Shown here piece by piece: positions 37,846 to 63,692 of a stretch of 64,000 bases of DNA (position 1 is the first letter of the stretch; the number at the start of each line of letters is the position of its first letter). The stretch spans positions 3,072,001 through 3,136,000 of the forward strand of contig OZ253555.1 of assembly GCA_965262725.1 (NCBI GenBank). The letters run 5' to 3'. Below the pieces are notes generated by a model that was not told the origin of the DNA, ran no database searches, and saw only the letters and a program-made list of their open reading frames with translations. The DNA comes from Dehalococcoidia bacterium (GTDB taxonomy: Bacteria > Chloroflexota > Dehalococcoidia > UBA2979). The translations under genes and the position numbers were made by a program.

Positions 37846-37895
37846 CAGGAGCCCCCGGAGACCCAGGGAACCGCTCGGGGGCCGGCGACGTTTAG

Positions 37896-39103
37896 GGCAA
37901 GTCTGATCAGGTGGGTCTAGCGACCCAGTTTCGCCGCGGTCAGGCGCTCTCAGGCGGATTCCCGATGACAGTGGTCATATCCGCCCCCTCGCGGGCCCCT
38001 GTGGCTCCCCTCCTCGCCCCGTGTGGGGCGGGGAGGGCGCACTCCACCCACGGTCAGGCACGGTGCGGCTTCGCGGTGAGCAGGTTGTGGAACCCCAGCA
38101 AGACCGCACACCGCTCGTGGTTCTTGAAGAGACCCCGGTACCGCACCTTGGCGTAGCCGAAGCGCCGCTTCACGCTGTAGAACGGGTGCTCCACCAGCGC
38201 TCGCACCGATGCCTTCCGCTTCTCCTCGACGGCCTCAGGACTCTCCGGGTCGAGCGCACGCCGGAGGCCCGGGCGCATCGCCACGTTCCAGTCCTTGACC
38301 CTGGAGTCCGCGTTCTCGGGTCTCTTCTGCACGCCCCGGTACCCGGCGTCGCCGTAGACCTCGGCTTCCTCGCCGTGCAGCAGGCGGTGCGTCTCAGACA
38401 CGTCCGACACGTTCGCAGGCGTGGTCGTGAAGTTGTGGACCAGTCCAGTATCCCTGTCGGCGCCGATGTGCAGCTTCATCCCGAAGAACCACTGTTTCCC
38501 CTTCTTGGTCTGATGCATCTCCGGGTCCCGCGCCCGCCCGCGATTCTTCGTCGACGATGGCGCCGAGATGATGGTCGCATCCACGATGCTGCCCTCGCTC
38601 AGCTTCAATCCCTTGCTCGTGAGGTGCTCGTTGATGAGTTGGAGGATCCTGCTACCCAGGGAGTGGCGCTCGAGCAGGTGCCGGAAGTTGAGGATCGTCG
38701 TCTCGTCGGGGATGGGCTCGGAGAGCGTGAGGAAGCAAAAGGCTCGCACCGACTCGGCCTCGTGGAGCAGATCCTCCATGCCGGGGTCGCTGAGGTTGTA
38801 GCAGAGTTGCACGGTATGGATGCGCAGCATCACGGAGAGCGGGTAGGGCCTCCGCCCGCGGCCCGGTTTCGGGTAGTGGGGCTCGATGGCTGCTTCGAAC
38901 CTCTGCCACGGGACGAGGCCATCCAGCCGTTCGAGGAACTTCTGGCGGCGCGTCTTGTAGCCATCCCGCTCGAACTCGACTCTCGCGAATGTCGGCTGAT
39001 GCATGGCAGCGCTCCCCTTTCCCGGAGGAGTGCCATGATCGCATATAGTCATCGGAGTGTGCATGTGCTCCAGTAACGACGCGGCGACCTGTTCAGAGAA
39101 CCC
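37896..39103 (-). mobile_element. IS5-family insertion sequence
   Basis: Imperfect 16-bp IRs GGCAAGTCTGATCAGG / CCTGTTCAGAGAACCC; TSD TTAG at 37892-37895 and 39104-39107. Confidence 0.88.
38054..39004 (-). CDS. IS5 transposase
   Basis: GRRPYPL, IPDETTILNFRHLLE, VDATII, WFFGMKLH, GDAGY, RALVEHPF. Confidence 0.93.
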   Translation of the reverse strand: MHQPTFARVEFERDGYKTRRQKFLERLDGLVPWQRFEAAIEPHYPKPGRGRRPYPLSVMLRIHTVQLCYNLSDPGMEDLLHEAESVRAFCFLTLSEPIPDETTILNFRHLLERHSLGSRILQLINEHLTSKGLKLSEGSIVDATIISAPSSTKNRGRARDPEMHQTKKGKQWFFGMKLHIGADRDTGLVHNFTTTPANVSDVSETHRLLHGEEAEVYGDAGYRGVQKRPENADSRVKDWNVAMRPGLRRALDPESPEAVEEKRKASVRALVEHPFYSVKRRFGYAKVRYRGLFKNHERCAVLLGFHNLLTAKPHRA

Positions 39104-39110
39104 TTAGTCA

Positions 39111-46821: not shown

Positions 46822-48019
46822 CAACGCCGCCGCCGTCCGCCCGCGGAGGGCCGCCTCCTAGTGTCCTGAATTGGAAATGCGATTGAGATATCCGGTGAGG
46901 TTGGTGTGTCCCGAAGTCGAAGGGCGGGTGACGTGATGACGTAACCGGTCTGGAGACATGCTCGTCGTTGCCAGCCGGTGCGAGTCCGGCACGGGTAACT
47001 GTCAGGAGGCCCGTTAGCAGGTCGGCGGCGCGGACGGGAAACGGTCCACGTCGAAGCCCGACGTCAAGAGCCCTATCAGGGGGAGCAACCAGGCGGTCCG
47101 CAGCATCAAGCGAAGCCTGCCGCGTCGTTAACGGATAGTGGAGGAGCCGAGCCCGGCAATTCAGGGCGAAGGCCATGGACGAGGTGAAGATCCTGAATGC
47201 GCGTTGCGCTGCAGCCTCAAGGAACCTCCCGGCGTAAGGGGCGTGGAACGTTTGGAAGGTAGCGACGGGAACGGGAGAAGCCCTCCCCGGCCCGGCACCC
47301 TGCGAGATGGTGTCGGAGCGAGGTGCCCTATAACCGGTCAAAGCCGGGAAGTGGGCAGCTAGCCGGAAGGGTGACGGAGGGGGTCGTAGTACCGCTTGAG
47401 CCGGACGGACAACACAACCGCCGGTGATGGGAAGGACCCCTGCTTTGCTCACGCGTGGGGAGTAGGGATGAATCGGTGAGTGCCCAAGCGGCTAACTCCA
47501 TCCAAGACAAGGTCCGAACACTACAACGCACGCTTTACCGGGCGGCCAAGGCCGACCCCAATAGACGCTTTCATGCGCTCTACGACAAGGTTTATCGCAG
47601 AGACATTCTGGAGCGCGCGTGGGAGCAGGTGCGTCGCAATCGCGGCGCAGCCGGTATCGACGGCGTCACGCTCGCCGAGGTCGAGCGCTACGGCGTGGAG
47701 CGCCTGCTGGATGAACTGGCCACGGAACTGAAGGAGGGAAGCTACCGGGTGCAGCCGAGCCGCCGGGTCTGGATACCCAAGCCCGGTCGGTCGGAAGAGC
47801 GCCCGCTCTCGATTCCTTCGGTCCGCGACCGCATCGTGCAGGCGTCGCTGAAGCTCGTGACGGAGCCGGTCTTCGAGGCCGACTTCCTGCCATGCAGCTT
47901 CGGCTTCCGCCCGAAGCGTTCGGCCCATGACGCCCTGCAGGTCCTCATTGACGAGGCGTGGCGGGGCAGGCGGTGGGTAGTGGAGACGGACATCGCCTCG
48001 TGTTTCGAGTCGATACCGC

Positions 48020-48881
48020 GTGCGTCCGGAAGTCGAAGGGGTGGTGACGTGATGACGTGACCGGTCCGGAGACATGCTCGTTGCTGCCAGCCGGTGAGAG
48101 TCCGGCACGGGTAACTGTCAGGAGGCCCGTTAGCAGGTCGGCGGCGTGGACGGGAAACGGTCTGCGTCGAAGCCCGACGTCAAGAGCCCTATGAGGGGGA
48201 GCAAACGTGCGGTCCGCAGCATGACGCGAAGTCTGCCGCGCCGTGAGACTCGCCTGTCTATTGACAGGACCAAGGAGGAGCCGAGCCCGGGTGGTCAGGG
48301 CGAAGGCCATGGACGAGGTGAAGATCCTGGAATGCAGCCTCAAGAAACCTCCCGGCGTATGGGACGTGGAACGTACGGAAGGTAGCGACGGGAACCGGAG
48401 AAGCCCTCCCCGGCCCGGCACCCTGTGAGAGGGCGTCGGAGCGAGGCGTCCTATAACCGGTCAGAGCCGGGAAGTGGACAGCCAGCCGGAAGGGTGGCGG
48501 AGGGGGTCGTAGTACCGCTGGAGCCGGACGGACAACATAACCGCCGGTGATGGGAAGGACCCCTACTTTGTCCGTGCATGTTGCTGGGGGTGTGGACTGG
48601 TGAGTGCCCCTCGGGGCTAGCAACCACTTGGTAGGGTTCGAGGCTCTCCGCACATGCTGTACCGGCTGGCCAAGGCACGACCCACGTTGTGGGGAGCGCT
48701 GCATGCCATCTGGTGAAGGGCATCGGTGAGCCGGATGAGGGAGAACCTCACGTCCGGTTCGATGTGGCAGGGGCTGGAGACGGACGCTGCTATGGCCGTG
48801 GAGTTGGGCACCACCGGGAAACCGGCTTGGAACTGATGCGCCACCGCCTACGGCTCGCACCGCGCCAGCCCCTGACCCTAC
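48020..48881 (+). mobile_element. ORF-less group IIB intron, inner, copy 1 (862 nt)
   Basis: 5' GTGCG; DV; 3' CTGACCCTAC; removal restores the RT codon C|AC (SIP-H-DRL). Confidence 0.93.
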
Positions 48882-49347
48882 ACGACCGTCTGATGACGGC
48901 CGTCGAGGAACGGATATGCGACCGCAATCTCCTGAAGCTGGTACGGGCGATGCTGCGTGCCGGTGTGATGGAGTCGGGGGTCGTGCAGCACAGCGCGACG
49001 GGTACGCCGCAGGGCGGGGTGATGTCCCCGCTGCTGGCCAATGTCTACCTGCACCGGTTGGACCGGGACTGGGAGGCGAAGGGTGATGGCGTGCTGGTGC
49101 GCTATGCGGATGACCTCGTGGTGCTCTGCCGGAGCCGGGAGGAAGCGGAGCGGGCGTTGGCCCTGCTGCGTGACCTGCTGGGTGAGCTCGGACTGGAGCT
49201 CAAGGCGGAGAAGACGCGCATTGGGAATGATGCTCTGAATTGGCCCCACCTGGAGCCGTTTTGATCCTTTGAATTGGCCCCACCCCCGACCCATCCAGGA
49301 CCTACGCTCGGGTGACTGCATGACTCCCGGAGCGAGGGAAGAGGAGT

Positions 49348-50982
49348 GTGTCGAGAGTGGAGCTGTTCGAGTCTATCCGACGGATGGCGAGGGAGGAGGA
49401 GCTGTCGATCCATGAGCTGGGACGCCGGCATGGCGTGCACCGGCGCACGGTGCGGCAGGCTCTTGGGTCGGCGATACCCCCGGAACGCAAGCAGGCGACC
49501 CGCGTGGCCCCGAAGCTCGGGCCGTACGTCTCGGTCATCCGGGGCTGGCTCGTGGACGACCTCAGCGCGCCGCGCAAGCAGCGGCACACGGCCCGGCGCA
49601 TCTGGGAGCGCCTCGTCGACGAACACGGGGCGACGGTGGCCGAGCCCACGGTCCGCGCCTGCGTCGCGCGCCTGCGTCGCGAGATCCAGGGCGGGCGCGC
49701 GGTTGTGACGATCCCGCAGGTCCATCCTCCCGGCGAGGAGGCGGAGGTCGACTTCGGCACGGTGACGGTGTGGCTGGAGGGCGTCGAGACCCGGCTGGCG
49801 ATGTTCGTGATGCGGCTCTCGCATTCGGGGCGGGCGGCGCACGTCTGCTTCGTCGGCGAGGGCCAGGAGTCTCTGCTCGAGGGGCACGTGGTCGCCTTCG
49901 AGCGGCTCGGCGGAGTGCCGCGGCGCATCCGCTACGACAATCTGACGGCGGCCGTCACCACCGTGCTGCAGGGACGCGAGCGCCTGCAGACCGAGCGCTT
50001 CATCGCGCTCCGCTCGCATTACGGCTTCGACAGCTTCTTCTGTGAGCCCGGCATCGAGGGCGCGCACGAGAAGGGCGGTGTGGAGGGCGAGGTCGGCCGC
50101 TTCCGCCGGCGGCACTTCGTGCCGGTCCCGAAGGTGGCGACCCTCGGCGAGCTGAACGAACGAGTGCGGGAGGCGGACCGCACCGACGACGCCCGGCACA
50201 TCGAGAGCCGCCTCGCCACCGTCGGCGAGATGGGAGAGAACGAGAAGGCCTCGCTGCGTCCGCTTCCGGCGGAGCGCTTCGACCCGTCAATCCCGCTGCG
50301 CGCGAAGGTCGACCGCAAGGCGCGCATCGCCGTGCGTAGCTCCCGCTACTCGGTCCCGGCGGCCTATGCAGGCCGGAAGCTGGACGTGCGGCTGTCCGGG
50401 AACAGCCTGACCGTGTGGGCCGAGGGGCGTGAAGTCGCCCACCACGAGCGCAGCGCCCGCACCGGAGCAGAGGTCCTGCTGCTCGACCACTATCTGGAGG
50501 TGCTCGCGCGCAAGCCCGGGGCGGTCCCGGGCTCGGTGGCGCTCCAGCAGGCGCGTGCGAAGGGACACGTCACAGCCGAGCATCAGCGCTTCTGGGACCG
50601 CGCCCGCCGCAAGCTCGGCGACCGCGCGGGCACGCAGGCGTACATCGAGGTCCTGCTCCTGCATCGCCATCTTCCCTTCACGGCGGTGCACGCCGCGCTC
50701 GGGACGGTCAACAGGATCCAGTCGGTGAACCCCGAACTGGTCGCCATCGAGGCGCGCCGTCTCGCCGACCGCAGGCCACCAGACGCCGCCGTCGAGAGAC
50801 CGCACCTGGAGCGCTACGACCGACCTGCCCCGCTCCTCGATGGCTACGATGCGCTGCTCTCGGGTGATTCCCGATGGCCCGGCACGTCGCCGGGCGGGCG
50901 CTCCCGCGCTCCGCGGTCTGCCGAGAACGCGTCGCACACCACCACAACCGCCGTCACCGCTGCGGTGTCGACGGCACGCTGA
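49348..50982 (+). CDS. istA: IS21 transposase
   Basis: PRKQRHTARRIWERL, PGEEAEVDFG, YDNL, HEKGGVE. Confidence 0.93.
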   Translation: MSRVELFESIRRMAREEELSIHELGRRHGVHRRTVRQALGSAIPPERKQATRVAPKLGPYVSVIRGWLVDDLSAPRKQRHTARRIWERLVDEHGATVAEPTVRACVARLRREIQGGRAVVTIPQVHPPGEEAEVDFGTVTVWLEGVETRLAMFVMRLSHSGRAAHVCFVGEGQESLLEGHVVAFERLGGVPRRIRYDNLTAAVTTVLQGRERLQTERFIALRSHYGFDSFFCEPGIEGAHEKGGVEGEVGRFRRRHFVPVPKVATLGELNERVREADRTDDARHIESRLATVGEMGENEKASLRPLPAERFDPSIPLRAKVDRKARIAVRSSRYSVPAAYAGRKLDVRLSGNSLTVWAEGREVAHHERSARTGAEVLLLDHYLEVLARKPGAVPGSVALQQARAKGHVTAEHQRFWDRARRKLGDRAGTQAYIEVLLLHRHLPFTAVHAALGTVNRIQSVNPELVAIEARRLADRRPPDAAVERPHLERYDRPAPLLDGYDALLSGDSRWPGTSPGGRSRAPRSAENASHTTTTAVTAAVSTAR

Positions 50983-50998
50983 CCACAGGAGGCACCCG

Positions 50999-51781
50999 AT
51001 GACAGCACCCCTCACCGACCAGGCCGCGGAGCTGACAATCGAGGCGATCTGCCGCGAGCTCCGTCTCCCCACCGTCAGGAAGCAGGCGCTCCCGCTCGCC
51101 GAAGCCGCGGTCCGAGACCGGATCACCCATCTGGGCTATCTCGCCGAAGTGCTGGGAGCCGAACGCGATGACCGTGAGGAGCGGCGCCGTCAGCGCCGTA
51201 TCGTCGAGGCGCGGTTCCCGCGTTTCAAGTACCTCGCCGACTTCGACCTCGAGGCGGCGCCGACAGTCGACGCGCCGGCGCTCGCCACGCTGGAGCGCTG
51301 CGACTGGGTCGAAAGGGGCGAGCCCGTCGTCCTGCTCGGTGACAGCGGCACCGGGAAGTCACACCTGCTCATCGGCCTCGGCATGGCCGCCTGCCACCTG
51401 GGGCTGCGCGTGCGGTACATGACCACGGCCGCCCTGGTGAATGAACTGGCCGAAGCGTCGGATGATCGCGCGCTCTCACGCCTCGTCGCCCGCTACGGCC
51501 GCCTCGACCTGCTCTGCCTGGATGAGTTCGGGTACGTCCACCTCGACCCGCGCGGTGCCGAAATGCTGTTCCAGATCCTGACCGAGCGCGAGGAACGGGC
51601 ATCGGTCGCCGTCGCCTCCAACTCCCCGTTCTCCGAGTGGGGCCGCATCTTCACCGACCCTCGTCTCGCCGCGGCCGTCGTTGACCGCCTCACCTACCGT
51701 GCCCATATCATCGAGACCGGCACCGAGTCCTACCGGCTCCGGGCCTCGACCTCCCCGAGAGGAGGTGCCCCAACGACCTGA
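50999..51781 (+). CDS. istB: IS21 helper ATPase
   Basis: GDSGTGKSH, LCLDEFGY, AAVVDRL. Confidence 0.93.
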   Translation: MTAPLTDQAAELTIEAICRELRLPTVRKQALPLAEAAVRDRITHLGYLAEVLGAERDDREERRRQRRIVEARFPRFKYLADFDLEAAPTVDAPALATLERCDWVERGEPVVLLGDSGTGKSHLLIGLGMAACHLGLRVRYMTTAALVNELAEASDDRALSRLVARYGRLDLLCLDEFGYVHLDPRGAEMLFQILTEREERASVAVASNSPFSEWGRIFTDPRLAAAVVDRLTYRAHIIETGTESYRLRASTSPRGGAPTT

Positions 51782-52035
51782 TCCCGGTCCCCGGGGGTGG
51801 GGCCAGATCAGAGGATCAAAGTGGGGCCAGATGTAAGCATCATTCCCACGCGCATCGTGCACCTGCGGGAGGGAGGCGAGGGGCTGGAGTTCCTCGGCTT
51901 CGAGCATCGCTGGGTACGTGCGAAGCGCAACAAGAATATCCAGTTCCTCGCACGCTGGCCCTCACGGCGAGCGATGCAGCGGGCGCGGGACCGCATCCGT
52001 GAAATCACGGCGCGGTTGCGTCTGCTGCTGAGTCC

Positions 52036-53453
52036 GGTCACGTCCCGGCAAGTGGTGTCACTGCGCATCATCCTTATCATTTGTTAGCCGGCAGCCTGCA
52101 GCAGCACCTCCTTGCCTGACGTGAGCTCACTCCCCGGCGGGGAGAGCAGCGTCATCATCGTCATGTAGCGCCGCCCCACGGCCCACTCGTCGTGCTGCTC
52201 GGAGAGCACCGCACCGATGAGCCGGATGACCGCTGAGCGGTTGGGGAAGATGCCGACCACGTTGGTGCGCCGGCGGATCTCCTTGTTGAGCCGCTCCTGG
52301 GGGTTGTTCGACCAGATCTGCCGCCAGTGCGCCACCGGGAAGGCCGTGAACGCCAGGATCTCCTCCGCGGCGTCGGCGAGCATTGCCGCGGCCTGCGGGA
52401 AGCGCGCACCGAGCTGCTCCACGACCCGCGTGTGCTGGGCGTGCACCTCGGAGGCCGAGGGCTGCTGGTAGATGGTGCGCACGGTCGTCGCCACCAGCGC
52501 CTCGGCGCTCTTCGGCACGCGTGTGAGCAGGTTCCGCATGAAGTGGGTACGGCAGCGCTGCCAGGAGGCGCCGCCGAAGACGGTCGCGATCGCTCCCCTC
52601 AGGCCCTGGTGGGCGTCGGAGGTCACCAGCTCCACGCCGGAGAGCCCTCGTGCTACGAGGCCGCGGAGAAATGCCAGCCAGAAGGCCCCGTCCTCGCTGG
52701 TACCGACGTCGATGCCCAGCACCTCGCGCTTCCCCTCCACGTTGACCGCGGTGGCGACGACGACGCTCACCTGGGCGATGCGGCCCTCCTCGCGCACCCG
52801 CTGGGTGAGCGCGTCGAGCCAGAGGTATCGGTAGGGGCCGGAGTCCAGGGGCCGGCCGAGGAAACTTGTGACGACCGTGTCGAGCTCCGAGCAGATACGC
52901 GAGACCTGGCTCTTGGAGATGCCCTCGCAGCCGAGCGAGCGCACGAGGTCGTCGACGCGGCGAGTGGAGACGCCCTCCACGTACGCTTGCTGGACGACGG
53001 CTAGCAAGGCGCGCTCTGAGCGGCGCCGGGGCTCGAGCAGCGCCGGGAAGTAGGACCCCTGGCGGAGCTTCGGGATCTGCAGGTCGATGCTGCCCACCCG
53101 CGTGTCCCAGCGTCTTTGCCTGTAGCCGTTGCGCCGGGTGGTGCGCATCTCGCTGCGCTCGCCGTAGCCGGCGCCGACCTGCGCCGAGACCTCCTGGTCC
53201 ATGACCGCCTCGGCGAGCACAGCCACCGCTTCGCGCAGGAAATCGAGGTCAGCTCCCGATGCCTGCTTGCGGAGCAGTTCCAACACGTCCACGCTCTCTC
53301 TGACCACCGTCGTCCTCCTCCACGTTCGTCATAACTTCGTGAAGGATGATGCGGTGGTCTCTTACGTCCACCTGCATGGGCACCGTGGTCGGTAGTAGGT
53401 CCCCCTGCGGAGACCGTCTCCCCGCCTGTGACACCACTTGCTGGGACGCTACT
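52036..53453 (-). mobile_element. IS256-family element
   Basis: 25-bp imperfect IRs (GGTCACGTCCCGGCAAGTGGTGTCA / TGACACCACTTGCTGGGACGCTACT); 8-bp TSD CTGAGTCC at 52028-52035 and 53454-53461. Confidence 0.92.
52084..53307 (-). CDS. IS256 (Mutator) transposase
   Basis: RNGYR, IPKLR, GVSTRRV, YLWLDA, SDAHQG, WQRCRTHF, ERLNKEIRRR. Confidence 0.94.
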   Translation of the reverse strand: MVRESVDVLELLRKQASGADLDFLREAVAVLAEAVMDQEVSAQVGAGYGERSEMRTTRRNGYRQRRWDTRVGSIDLQIPKLRQGSYFPALLEPRRRSERALLAVVQQAYVEGVSTRRVDDLVRSLGCEGISKSQVSRICSELDTVVTSFLGRPLDSGPYRYLWLDALTQRVREEGRIAQVSVVVATAVNVEGKREVLGIDVGTSEDGAFWLAFLRGLVARGLSGVELVTSDAHQGLRGAIATVFGGASWQRCRTHFMRNLLTRVPKSAEALVATTVRTIYQQPSASEVHAQHTRVVEQLGARFPQAAAMLADAAEEILAFTAFPVAHWRQIWSNNPQERLNKEIRRRTNVVGIFPNRSAVIRLIGAVLSEQHDEWAVGRRYMTMMTLLSPPGSELTSGKEVLLQAAG

Positions 53454-54040
53454 CTGAGTCCCCGGCAGGTCGTGGAGGAAGTCAATCGCTACCTCCGCGG
53501 CTGGATGAGCTACTTCCGCTACGGCAACTCGGCGAGGGCGTTCGACGTCCTGCACTGGTTTGCCATGTGGAGACTCAAACTCTGGCTGGGGAAGCGGTTG
53601 CGTTGGCGGCGACGCCATCGCGGGCACCCGTTTCCCGTCGCCGACCGTCTGGGGCTCATCTCGCTAGCTGGACAGCGCGTCGTGGCACCACGGCCATATC
53701 GACCGTGGCGGGGCACCCCGCATGCCGCCCGGTGAAGGGCATCGGTGAGCCGGATGAGGGAAAACCTCACGTCCGGTTCGAGGCGGCAGGGGCTGGAGAC
53801 GGACGATGCTACGGCTGTGGAGATGGGCGCCACCGGGAAACCGGCCTGGCAATATGCGCCACCGCCTACGGCTCGCACCGCGCCAGCCCCTGACCCTACT
53901 CAAGGATCTGGTCCGCGGACTTGTGCCAGATGAAGCGCCTCCGGTGCTCGTTTCCAGTTGCGACCCAAGCCTCCACTGAGCGGACCAGGCCTGCGAGGCT
54001 CGGTGCGATTGTTTTCAGCATTTGCAACTCGGGACACTAG

Positions 54041-59280: not shown

Positions 59281-59662
59281 CCGTCCGGCTCCGGCCACCC
59301 TCCGGCGAACCGAGCCGCATCCTACCGCCGAGTCGCCGTAGGGGCCCACCGCCGCGTCCGGCGGAGCGCCGGGCGCCTGCTACCGTGGCGGCATGCCTTA
59401 CGGCGAGCGGGCGGAGCTGGCGGAGGCGAGAGGCGGACGGTGCGCCCATTGCCGGGCGCCTACCGAGCGCGCCTGCCTCGCCTGCGCGCAGCTCGTCTGC
59501 CCCGGCTGCGAGGAGCGGCACGACCGTGAATGGCCCCACCGAGCCTACGGGGAGATCTAGGCCGATCAGTGGCTGGTCTAGTGTCCTGATTCGTAATAGC
59601 GACAGATAACGGGTATGGTGGCACAGCGGGGTTTTGCCCCATGGGGCAGACTCTGGAGTGTC

Positions 59663-62600
59663 ATGAGCACCCGAATCGGACGGCCGACGGTCGCGATCGT
59701 CCTGAGCGACGAGGAGCGTGAGACGCTGGAGCGGTGGGCGCGCCGGCCGACATCGGCCCAGGCGCTGGCGCTGCGCTGTCGCATCGTCCTGGCAGCGGCC
59801 GAGGGGACATCGAATAAAGCGATCGCCGCGGCGCTCGATTGCCATCCGGTCACCGTCGGCAAGTGGCGCCGGCGCTTTGCGCAGGGGCGGCTCGATGGGC
59901 TACAGGATGAGCCGCGCCCCGGGGCGCCGCGCACGATCGCCGATGCACAGGTGGAAGCGGTGATCGTCACGACGCTGGAGGAGCAGCCTCCCAACGCGAC
60001 GCACTGGTCGACCCGATCGATGGCAGCCGCGGTCGGGATGTCGCAGTCGGCGATCTTCAGGATCTGGCGCGCCTTCGGCCTGAAGCCGCACCTCGTGGAG
60101 AGCTTCAAGCTGTCGCCCGACCCGCAGTTCATCGACAAGGTGCGCGACGTGGCCGGGCTCTATCTCAACCCGCCCGACGCGGCGGTTGTGCTGTGCGTGG
60201 ACGAGAAGACCCAGATCCAGGCACTCGACCGCACCGCGCCGACGGTGCCGATGATGCCCGGCGTCCCCGCCCGCCAGACGCACGACTACATCCGTCACGG
60301 CACGACGAACCTCTACGCGGCGCTCGATGTCGCCTCGGGATGCGTGATCACGGAGATGACCCCCCGGCACCGGGCTCGGGAGTTCCAGCAGTTCCTCGCC
60401 CTCATCGACCAAAGCGTTCCCCGTGAGCTGGCGGTGCATGTCGTGCTCGACAACGTCTCCACGCACCGCACGCCCGCCATCCAGCGCTGGCTCCAGCGCC
60501 ATCCCCGCTTCACCTTCCATTTCACGCCGACCTACAGCTCCTGGATGAACCTCGTGGAGCGCTGGTTTGCAGAGCTCACCAGCAAGTGGCTCCGGCGCGG
60601 CACGCACCATAGCGTCCCTGATCTGATCCGCTCAGTGGAGATGTGGGTCGCCAGCTGGAACGAGAATCCGAGGCCCTTCATCTGGCACAAGTCCGCGGAC
60701 CAGATCCTTGAGTAGGGTCAGGGGCTGGCGCGGTGCGAGCCGTAGGCGGTGGCGCATATTGCCAGGCCGGTTTCCCGGTGGCGCCCATCTCCACAGCCGT
60801 AGCATCGTCCGTCTCCAGCCCCTGCCGCCTCGAACCGGACGTGAGGTTTTCCCTCATCCGGCTCACCGATGCCCTTCACCGGGCGGCATGCGGGGTGCCC
60901 CGCCACGGTCGATATGGCCGTGGTGCCACGACGCGCTGTCCAGCTAGCGAGATGAGCCCCAGACGGTCGGCGACGGGAAACGGGTGCCCGCGATGGCGTC
61001 GCCGCCAACGCAACCGCTTCCCCAGCCAGAGTTTGAGTCTCCACATGGCAAACCAGTGCAGGACGTCGAACGCCCTCGCCGAGTTGCCGTAGCGGAAGTA
61101 GCTCATCCAGCCGCGGAGGTAGCGATTGACTTCCTCCACGACCTGCCGGGGACTCAGCAGCAGACGCAACCGCGCCGTGATTTCACGGATGCGGTCCCGC
61201 GCCCGCTGCATCGCTCGCCGTGAGGGCCAGCGTGCGAGGAACTGGATATTCTTGTTGCGCTTCGCACGTACCCAGCGATGCTCGAAGCCGAGGAACTCCA
61301 GCCCCTCGCCTCCCTCCCGCAGGTGCACGATGCGCGTCTTCTCCGCCTTGAGCTCCAGTCCGAGCTCACCCAGCAGGTCACGCAGCAGGGCCAACGCCCG
61401 CTCCGCTTCCTCCCGGCTCCGGCAGAGCACCACGAGGTCATCCGCATAGCGCACCAGCACGCCATCACCCTTCGCCTCCCAGTCCCGGTCCAACCGGTGC
61501 AGGTAGACATTGGCCAGCAGCGGGGACATCACCCCGCCCTGCGGCGTACCCGTCGCGCTGTGCTGCACGACCCCCGACTCCATCACACCGGCACGCAGCA
61601 TCGCCCGTACCAGCTTCAGGAGATTGCGGTCGCATATCCGTTCCTCGACGGCCGTCATCAGACGGTCGTGTAGGGTCAGGGGCTGGCGCGGTGCGAGCCG
61701 TAGGCGGTGGCGCATCAGTTCCAAGCCGGTTTCCCGGTGGTGCCCAACTCCACGGCCATAGCAGCGTCCGTCTCCAGCCCCTGCCACATCGAACCGGACG
61801 TGAGGTTCTCCCTCATCCGGCTCACCGATGCCCTTCACCAGATGGCATGCAGCGCTCCCCACAACGTGGGTCGTGCCTTGGCCAGCCGGTACAGCATGTG
61901 CGGAGAGCCTCGAACCCTACCAAGTGGTTGCTAGCCCCGAGGGGCACTCACCAGTCCACACCCCCAGCAACATGCACGGACAAAGTAGGGGTCCTTCCCA
62001 TCACCGGCGGTTATGTTGTCCGTCCGGCTCCAGCGGTACTACGACCCCCTCCGCCACCCTTCCGGCTGGCTGTCCACTTCCCGGCTCTGACCGGTTATAG
62101 GACGCCTCGCTCCGACGCCCTCTCACAGGGTGCCGGGCCGGGGAGGGCTTCTCCGGTTCCCGTCGCTACCTTCCGTACGTTCCACGTCCCATACGCCGGG
62201 AGGTTTCTTGAGGCTGCATTCCAGGATCTTCACCTCGTCCATGGCCTTCGCCCTGACCACCCGGGCTCGGCTCCTCCTTGGTCCTGTCAATAGACAGGCG
62301 AGTCTCACGGCGCGGCAGACTTCGCGTCATGCTGCGGACCGCACGTTTGCTCCCCCTCATAGGGCTCTTGACGTCGGGCTTCGACGCAGACCGTTTCCCG
62401 TCCACGCCGCCGACCTGCTAACGGGCCTCCTGACAGTTACCCGTGCCGGACTCTCACCGGCTGGCAGCAACGAGCATGTCTCCGGACCGGTCACGTCATC
62501 ACGTCACCACCCCTTCGACTTCCGGACGCACGCGGTATCGACTCGAAACACGAGGCGATGTCCGTCTCCACTACCCACCGCCTGCCCCGCCACGCCTCGT

Positions 62601-63692
62601 CAATGAGGACCTGCAGGGCGTCATGGGCCGAACGCTTCGGGCGGAAGCCGAAGCTGCATGGCAGGAAGTCGGCCTCGAAGACCGGCTCCGTCACGAGCTT
62701 CAGCGACGCCTGCACGATGCGGTCGCGGACCGAAGGAATCGAGAGCGGGCGCTCTTCCGACCGACCGGGCTTGGGTATCCAGACCCGGCGGCTCGGCTGC
62801 ACCCGGTATCTTCCCTCCTTCAGTTCCGTGGCCAGTTCATCCAGCAGGCGCTCCACGCCGTAGCGCTCGACCTCGGCGAGCGTGACGCCGTCGATACCGG
62901 CTGCGCCGCGATTGCGACGCACCTGCTCCCACGCGCGCTCCAGAATGTCTCTGCGATAAACCTTGTCGTAGAGCGCATGAAAGCGTCTATTGGGGTCGGC
63001 CTTGGCCGCCCGGTAAAGCGTGCGTTGTAGTGTTCGGACCTTGTCTTGGATGGAGTTAGCCGCTTGGGCACTCACCGATTCATCCCTACTCCCCACGCGT
63101 GAGCAAAGCAGGGGTCCTTCCCATCACCGGCGGTTGTGTTGTCCGTCCGGCTCAAGCGGTACTACGACCCCCTCCGTCACCCTTCCGGCTAGCTGCCCAC
63201 TTCCCGGCTTTGACCGGTTATAGGGCACCTCGCTCCGACACCATCTCGCAGGGTGCCGGGCCGGGGAGGGCTTCTCCCGTTCCCGTCGCTACCTTCCAAA
63301 CGTTCCACGCCCCTTACGCCGGGAGGTTCCTTGAGGCTGCAGCGCAACGCGCATTCAGGATCTTCACCTCGTCCATGGCCTTCGCCCTGAATTGCCGGGC
63401 TCGGCTCCTCCACTATCCGTTAACGACGCGGCAGGCTTCGCTTGATGCTGCGGACCGCCTGGTTGCTCCCCTGATAGGGCTCTTGACGTCGGGCTTCGAC
63501 GTGGACCGTTTCCCGTCCGCGCCGCCGACCTGCTAACGGGCCTCCTGACAGTTACCCGTGCCGGACTCGCACCGGCTGGCAACGACGAGCATGTCTCCAG
63601 ACCGGTTACGTCATCACGTCACCCGCCCTTCGACTTCGGGACACACCAACCTCGCCGGATATCTAGAGCGCATCCCTGAATCGGGACACTAG
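59663..63692 (+). CDS. IS630 transposase, join(59663-60711, 63647-63692); as interrupted it reads to a stop at 60715
   Basis: HWSTR, CVDEK.QIQAL, YIRHGT, LDNVSTH, SSWMNLVERWF; the rejoined end reads DQILDNLAGYLERIPESGH*. Confidence 0.92.
60876..63075 (-). CDS. ltrA: Group II intron RT/maturase lacking an En domain, join(63075-62532, 61669-60876), 445 aa after inner-intron splicing
   Basis: RT motifs including RYADD, X domain LRGWMSYFR; 544+794 nt = 446 codons. Confidence 0.92.
61670..62531 (-). mobile_element. ORF-less group IIB intron, inner, copy 2
   Basis: Inverted copy of 48020-48881 at the same RT codon. Confidence 0.93.

Follow-up and report, generated by a model that had tools for sequence, protein, structure and literature searches.

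Genomic setting

The window analyzed here is a 64,000-nt stretch of a Dehalococcoidia bacterium genome (lineage UBA2979; GCA_965262725.1, contig OZ253555.1, positions 3,072,001 to 3,136,000). At positions 59581-63689 it holds an IS630-family insertion sequence (IS) that carries a group II intron with a gene for a reverse transcriptase (RT), inserted antisense to the transposase gene. This outer intron is itself split by a second group II intron that lacks an open reading frame (ORF), and we refer to the nested pair as the twintron. Features are given below in window coordinates, including the exon-binding sites (EBS) proposed for the outer intron and the intron-binding sites (IBS) of its target.

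59579..59580, no strand: left TA target duplication, inside CTAG
59581..59618, plus strand: left inverted repeat, beginning GTGTCCTGATTCG..., an imperfect inverted match to the right end visible in the sequence
59615..60715, plus strand: truncated IS630 transposase from the ORF list, with DDE_3 and helix-turn-helix (HTH) domains and a match to NF033545
60712..63646, minus strand: outer group II intron, 2,935 nt with the inner intron counted in, delimited by Rfam, the exact empty site and copy comparison
60712..60866, minus strand: domains 5 and 6 of the outer intron (RF00029, 41.5 bits; fold -83.7 kcal/mol, z = -4.9)
60876..61667, minus strand: C-terminal part of the RT/maturase ORF, 263 aa, comprising the second RT half and maturase X (RVT_1 positions 90-204, GIIM; TIGR04416 positions 140-352)
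61670..62531, minus strand: inner ORF-less group II intron, 862 nt, 5' GTGCG ... CCCTAC 3', delimited by RF02003, copy search and the split codon
62533..63096, minus strand: N-terminal part of the RT ORF, 188 aa (RVT_1 positions 1-83; TIGR04416 positions 2-137)
63390..63394, minus strand: proposed EBS1, CAATT, in a 9-nt loop closed by GCCC/GGGC, pairing with GGTTG (two G-U pairs) at exon positions -5 to -1
63414..63419, minus strand: proposed EBS2, CGGATA, complementary to TATCCG at exon positions -15 to -10
63651..63647 and 63661..63656, minus strand: IBS1 (GGTTG) and IBS2 (TATCCG), within the right 43 bp of the IS
63647..63689, plus strand: right inverted repeat, the final 43 bp of the IS, coding for the 15 lost transposase residues in intact copies
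63690..63691, no strand: right TA target duplication, which with the following G forms the transposase stop in intact copies

An IS630-family element with a shortened transposase

The element has a DDE transposase, terminal inverted repeats and a TA duplication at a CTAG-type target, and is thus an IS630-family IS. It starts at 59581, as the initial annotation placed it, but ends at 63689 and not at 63692, which adds the TA plus a G. Like those of every copy, its flanks follow the pattern C-TA/GTGTCC...GGACAC/TA-G, with the TA at 59579-59580 and at 63690-63691 lying within CTAG on both sides. All 23 elements listed are flanked by TA, nearly all of them inside CTAG.

The transposase matches the NCBIfam IS630 model NF033545 (270.9 bits, cut-off 100; residues 54-347) and Pfam DDE_3 (7.5e-24; residues 192-337), as well as HTH domains, and the NF033545 and DDE_3 matches both end upstream of the intron break. 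Across 51 homologues, D180 and D263 do not vary and E299 shows at least 90% conservation; we take these three to be the catalytic residues. A PDB sequence search with the transposase profile gave no meaningful match. The true start is probably the ATG at 59663 (M17), because homologues measure 363-364 aa.

Uninterrupted copies of the full IS, here termed IS-A, encode a transposase ending in ..DQILDNLAGYLERIPESGH. Their ORF has no stop inside the IS, and its TAG is built from the duplicated TA and the G of CTAG (window 63686-63692). The window copy ends in ..DQILE, with 15 residues lost and one gained, at a TAG (60713-60715) supplied by the 3' end of the antisense intron. Comparison with the intact ORF thus confirms that the intron terminus supplies an in-frame stop after ..ILE and removes about 15 residues, as had been read from the window. 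The DDE core, both inverted repeats and the TA duplication, reported there as intact, are indeed so, since the domains lie upstream of the break and the ends are as in intact copies.

An endonuclease-less outer intron

The outer intron runs from 5' GTGTG to ..CCCTAC 3', antisense to the transposase gene, and has ~2,073 nt of its own sequence when the inner intron is excluded. It matches RF02003 (91.8 bits, cut-off 49) and RF00029 (41.5 bits, cut-off 40). The predicted fold shows a domain 5 hairpin and then an unusually long domain 6 (~115 nt) with a bulged A 7 nt before the 3' end. The two RT pieces score 172.4 and 214.5 bits against TIGR04416, whose cut-off of 300 applies to the whole protein. 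They are in frame after removal of the inner intron, giving a protein of ~452 aa in which only RVT_1 and GIIM are matched. No HNH or other endonuclease family is matched in this protein at E <= 0.01, and only ~38 residues lie beyond the X domain. Judged by its ends, domains and EBS/IBS pairing, the outer element is a group II intron of the mobile, RT/maturase-encoding and endonuclease-less type. Indirect support for splicing and retromobility comes from 12 sites that carry near-identical copies and from the exact empty sites.

A 1-nt gap private to the window copy, at intron position 180 within a G run, may be an assembly error; collapsed short-read contigs carry the longer form. The closest plasmid-borne RTs in a tblastn search come from Streptomyces and Rhodococcus (56-61% identity), and no intron class was obtained from that search.

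A second intron nested in the first

The inner intron matches RF02003 at 102.8 bits and RF00029 at 37.5 bits, the latter below the cut-off of 40. It shares 86% identity with the outer intron over ~550 nt at the 5' end, and the 3' ends of the two are nearly identical. Its removal joins C/AC into a His codon and restores the RT frame (..CFESIP-H-DRLM..), and the restored junction matches the uninterrupted ..CFESIPHDRLM.. of a 444-aa RT in a same-genus relative (G003). The arrangement is a twintron, that is, a complete intron nested in an intron whose RT is restored by its removal.

Every outer copy in the genome (12/12) carries the inner intron at the same codon, and a second RT intron that is 75-80% identical is split likewise in 3/3 copies. 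The genome holds 24 full-length, 100%-identical copies of the inner intron and several partial or interrupted ones. About 12 are solo, at many non-IS sites that have only IBS-like motifs in common. These solo copies suggest that the inner intron is actively retromobile and relies on an RT supplied in trans.

Other arrangements of these introns were also observed. In sequencing run X5, one contig joins 61669 to 62532 across the inner intron, with a shorter side of 29 nt. Another strain or sample may carry the outer intron with an uninterrupted RT gene, an arrangement of which this genome has no copy. Inside one outer intron (locus L001), a pair of inner introns is arranged head to tail at genome positions 549500-551223, the second abutting the 3' end of the first. 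An IS-A copy at 380618-382659 carries the inner intron alone, antisense, ~80 nt from the left end and at the likely transposase start codon; its outer-intron site is empty. The genome further encodes 12 uninterrupted group II RT genes of other families (open frames of 475-500 aa), one of which, at 735033-736154, is located within a copy of the second RT intron. Its group II intron copies total well over 40.

The target site and its pairing with the intron

Seven uninterrupted IS copies elsewhere in the genome read CCAGATCCTTGA directly followed by CAACCTCGCC, and because they show the joined sequence, the insertion point CTT GA/C AAC is exact. The distance of 43 bp to the IS end (63647-63689) that the initial annotation gave is likewise exact by these copies. 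Both proposed EBS loops are located in domain 1 of the intron, and the strand they target is antisense to the transposase. Together, EBS2 and EBS1 pair with TATCCG..GGTTG on this strand, 43 bp inside the right IS end. The equivalent loop positions pair with the respective 5' exon in six introns, namely the outer, the inner, the second RT intron and three from relatives, with EBS1 pairs of 5/5, 5/5, 4/5, 4/5, 5/5 and 4/5. EBS3/IBS3 was not located in the outer intron. This covariation of EBS and IBS points to RNA-guided retrohoming as the origin of the insertion.

We searched the whole genome with the 15-nt target pattern TA[TG]CCGG[CT]GAG[GA]TTG, which includes the observed variants. Each of the 26 matches falls within an IS630-type element, which is the full IS or a 184-bp miniature inverted-repeat transposable element (MITE) with IS630-type ends that retains the last ~130 nt of a related IS. 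The MITE derives from a related IS630 and has kept the site, so that IS copies and MITEs between them provide 26 dispensable positions at which the intron can land. The proposed count of occupied against empty sites gives 12 to 14. With 12 of 26 targets filled and the pairing co-varying, the reading of the outer intron as homing site-specifically, antisense, into the extreme 3' end of IS630 is borne out.

Copies in the genome and in relatives

The 3.67-Mb genome contains 12 outer-intron copies, all at this site, five of them in the full IS and seven in the MITE. The host elements differ by up to 4.9%, the nested introns by at most 0.1%. Ten distinct sequences are found among the 12 hosts. Among the MITE hosts, as many as 9 of 185 positions differ. 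Of the IS hosts, one has 97.6% identity and is 5'-truncated (lacking the left end), and another has five private single-nucleotide polymorphisms (SNPs). The twintrons have three variable positions in 2,936 nt and differ from one another at three or fewer; two of the variable sites occur in all four combinations. Because the hosts differ far more than the introns nested in them, the intron appears to have spread mostly through independent retrohoming. Counting only clearly different host types, at least six separate, independent homing events would be needed.

Identical MITE sequences are found both occupied and empty (294688 = 996021; 1591281 = 3118859 = 2581931), and the occupied/empty pair 1422574 and 2585218 shares its immediate flanks as well. 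The flanks of the window locus lie 12 nt apart in G003, which indicates a simple insertion, and relatives carry the IS without the intron. Continuity of ORFs across restored empty sites was uninformative, as CTAG contains a stop on either strand and the majority of the sites are intergenic or in other ISs.

Among 98 further genomes of the family, none contains the intron/IS junction. Half or more of the words sampled from this sequence occur in 17 sequencing runs that belong to 7 studies. Exact junction patterns, two per collection, had no matches in two public contig collections (genome and metagenome) from which the genome itself may be excluded. G003 carries an outer-type intron (locus L010, 1908-3980) that is 86-88% identical, lacks the inner intron, lies in sense orientation and has EBS loops changed to fit its exon. 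Its host gene presumably encodes an IS256-type transposase, to judge from its motifs. The presence of this intron in a different exon suggests retargeting within the intron lineage.

We consider it likely, at roughly 80%, that an endonuclease-less RT intron together with an ORF-less derivative of its own kind reached IS630 by RNA-guided retrohoming. At the window locus, the IS would have come first and the intron second. Since the intron protein has no endonuclease domain, insertion was most likely into the single-stranded lagging-strand template at replication forks, and correctly facing sites would then be filled preferentially.

Two further sets of elements lie beside these copies. A 1.2-kb IS5-family element (NF033581, 305 bits) is present in the window at 37893-39106 on the minus strand and in the genome at 189051, 741995, 1417603, 1631298 and 3510415. 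It abuts the right end of five of the seven intron-free IS-A copies in constant orientation, and four of those five IS copies have the SNP 843A. The IS5-family element is absent from the right end of every intron-bearing IS copy. This adjacency at five empty IS copies was considered as a sign of composite movement and set aside, shared CTAG-type targets being the simpler explanation; IS5 elements prefer CTAG-type targets. A perfect palindrome of ~70 bp flanked by CTAG adjoins IS630-type MITEs at genome ~2582115-2582190 and in the left flank of 1450886, and looks like another tiny TA-targeting MITE.

Orientation relative to replication

The dnaA gene lies at 0.478 Mb, and cumulative GC skew is lowest at ~0.40-0.45 Mb and highest over a plateau at 1.95-2.55 Mb. 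The skew is flat over 3.65-0.45 Mb and 1.95-2.55 Mb, which makes the replichore borders approximate. Ten of the 12 outer copies point the same way as the fork (binomial p = 0.019), as do all five IS-borne outer copies (p = 0.031), all three copies of the second RT intron and, outside the ambiguous zones, all 10 solo inner copies (p = 0.001); because the intron copies are related to one another, these tests overstate independence. Occupied sites are favourably oriented in 10 cases and unfavourably in two, as against five and nine among the empty sites (Fisher p = 0.021; 0.065 and 0.041 without the ambiguous zones). The co-directional bias agrees with the published pattern for endonuclease-less introns, as given in excerpts of PMC4424553 and PMC8914252.

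The approximate borders and the relatedness of the copies weigh against the retrohoming reading, and so do several further observations. The copies at 1453961 and 3118904 are oriented against the fork, and five sites in the favourable orientation are empty even with their IBS motifs intact. A sigma-70 promoter and terminator scan upstream of the intron, which may not suit this organism, found none. Metatranscriptome runs X18 and X19 yielded almost no contigs on the intron; their contigs comprise IS-like pieces (95-99% identity), one empty IS copy elsewhere and a 42-nt inner-intron piece. No IS-only state at the window locus was seen in the near-identical strain of run X5. Finally, the window copy and the copy at 2974407-2978520 have two variants in common, 843G in the IS and the rare 189G in the twintron, a pattern that movement in one step would also fit.

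The counter-oriented copy at 3118904 belongs to a second twintron within the window (46859-54039; genome 3118859-3126039; plus strand). It sits in a 184-bp IS630-type MITE, is broken by further nested insertions and points against the fork. A local inversion was rejected as the cause of its orientation, the block being colinear with G003. Fine-scale GC skew was also tried for local inversions and is confounded by the base composition of the elements themselves.

Possible movement of the nest as DNA

An alternative is that the IS::twintron (4.1 kb) or MITE::twintron (3.1 kb) moves as a whole by cut-and-paste, with transposase provided by intact copies, such that several copies, possibly including that of the window, arrived as a unit. 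Seven intact IS copies with a full-length ORF are a possible source of the enzyme and, as both ends of the IS are intact, such sister copies could in principle move the unit in trans. In run X5, positions 59577 and 63689 are connected by a 6,745-nt contig that has a 4-nt CTAG overlap and no mismatches in the flanks. The near-identical strain thus lacks the entire 4,111-bp unit, and a single event could account for the difference. The MITE::twintron copies at 1183390 and 1450886 are identical over the MITE and share a private SNP 4 nt from the insertion; their replication orientations are opposite. Both counter-oriented twintrons are MITE-borne, and that at 3118859 has a host-identical, favourably oriented partner at 1591281. 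The pairing of variants 843G and 189G in the window copy and in 2974407 would follow from joint movement as well.

Other observations speak against such movement. The pair 1591281/3118859 differs at both variable twintron sites, and the same MITE type also occurs empty. Copy 2974407 has a MITE-type right end, which the window copy does not, and copy 15734 lacks the left end and so cannot transpose. All five IS-borne copies are favourably oriented, although CTAG-directed transposition should be blind to orientation. The junction is absent from the 98 other family genomes, and the 12 copies sit in 10 distinct hosts that are far more diverged than their twintrons. We regard arrival of several copies as a DNA unit as doubtful.

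The proposal that IS630, intron and satellite travel as one 4.1-kb DNA unit is therefore unlikely to describe the main route, given 10 distinct hosts for 12 copies and the orientation bias; occasional movement of this kind is possible in view of the strain difference, the identical MITE::twintron pair and the MITE-borne nature of both counter-oriented copies. The initial annotation had also stated that an inactive truncated transposase, together with a distinct IS sequence around every intron, would indicate independent homing only. The 10 distinct host sequences among the 12 intron-bearing elements, set against twintrons that differ at three positions or fewer, speak against joint travel; the one identical MITE::twintron pair speaks for it. 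It is possible, though we would not favour it, that the IS630-type ends give the nest a second, DNA-based route. A nest of 3-4 kb would then be moved in trans and freed from fork orientation, and the counter-oriented copies and the strain difference would be such jumps.

Two copies are chimeric. At genome 548339-553314 (L001) and 2974407-2978520 (L003), an IS-A body and the twintron are followed by the right 43 bp of the MITE type. In G003, the sequences that flank the first lie 115 kb from each other and are inverted. The chimeras look like products of recombination between dispersed twintrons. They were considered as proof of composite transposition and rejected, their IS and twintron variants being different and the flanks of one not being adjacent in relatives.

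These chimeras, the displaced and inverted flanks of the first and the four combinations of the two variable twintron sites would also fit another route, in which homologous recombination or gene conversion at the flanking IS homology transfers the twintron from one IS or MITE copy to the next, with no reverse transcription involved. Gene conversion, however, should ignore replication direction, which occupancy follows. The homology on the right side amounts to just 43 bp, a reciprocal chimera was not found, and the solo inner copies at non-IS sites indicate active retromobility. Recombination as the origin of the copies is very improbable, and retrohoming remains our preferred reading.

The lost transposase tail

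As the intron is antisense, it cannot be spliced from the transposase mRNA, and the occupied copy would make a transposase without its conserved last 15 residues. Nearly all homologues (118 of 119; 74-97% identity) end at the same column. In these 119 sequences, the tail ILDxLAxYxxRIxDSGH is as conserved as the core, with Y at 100%, R 97%, I 96%, S 95%, G 94% and H 97%; part of this may be due to the inverted repeat that encodes it. The description of the insertion point as a low-cost site finds no support here. The break lies beyond the catalytic domain, but the lost residues are among the best conserved in the family. The mobility of occupied copies would in any event be independent of the truncated protein, because the seven intact copies could act in trans.

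A tail this conserved suggests that the truncated protein is altered in function, and RmInt1, a group II intron of Sinorhizobium meliloti, is proposed to keep the spread of the IS that hosts it in check (PMC4238363, excerpts). Antisense intron RNA or a dominant-negative, tail-less transposase could in this way damp IS630, the occupied copies acting as brakes. Such a regulatory by-product would be compatible with an origin by retrohoming. Seven of the copies are MITE-borne and encode no transposase, and no sequence feature demands a regulatory function, so we consider this role improbable. In annotation, the tail-less transposase is best treated as a by-product of intron insertion and not as a natural short isoform.

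Relation to known systems

RmInt1 (IIB3/class D) resides in the IS630-family element ISRm2011-2. The precedent invoked in the initial annotation is thus real, but there the intron occupies the transposase coding region in the sense direction and its splicing is required for the transposase, according to the available part of PMC4238363. RmInt1 uses the lagging-strand template (PMC8914252 and PMC1802570, in part), and endonuclease-less introns use replication forks (PMC4424553, in part). The outer intron resembles RmInt1, as far as these excerpts describe it, in its endonuclease-less RT/maturase, its high copy number, a natural homing site in an IS630-family element, EBS/IBS targeting and a lagging-strand preference, here suggested by the orientation bias. 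Unlike RmInt1, it is antisense, with 43 bp between it and the end of the IS, and cannot leave the transposase mRNA by splicing; it is also found in MITEs and always carries a nested intron. An RmInt1-like association, with a sense intron whose splicing restores the ORF, was rejected for the window since intron and transposase lie on the minus and plus strands, respectively.

Nested homing into related introns is described for Methanosarcina acetivorans (PMC4424553, in part), and bacterial twintrons are reported, among others, from Thermosynechococcus and Trichodesmium (PMC2882425 and PMC4649490, in part). As in the excerpted accounts of those cases, an ORF-less intron is found here site-specifically in a related RT intron, outside housekeeping genes. 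The present case differs in that all 12 outer copies and all three of the second RT intron are split at the same codon and in that the nest sits inside DNA transposons. Bacterial group II introns are often located in transposase genes and beside other introns (Waldern et al. 2020; PMC7306698, in part). That survey of 'hiding' documents a general tendency, and its consulted sections do not describe an antisense, end-of-IS target shared with MITEs. Among the papers listed by a full-text search on group II introns together with MITEs, no title or abstract opening describes a MITE-carried intron.

The system is of a known kind. New are the antisense target at the end of an IS, its sharing with derived MITEs, and the nested intron that splits the RT in every copy. 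If movement as DNA also occurs, this would be a three-layer element made up of a DNA transposon, an RT intron and an ORF-less intron that uses both RNA and DNA transposition, and a clear case of a retroelement borrowing the mobility of a DNA transposon. The finding provides an independent example, far from rhizobial RmInt1, of an endonuclease-less intron in IS630 whose sites are filled according to replication direction, a pattern that can be read from a single genome.

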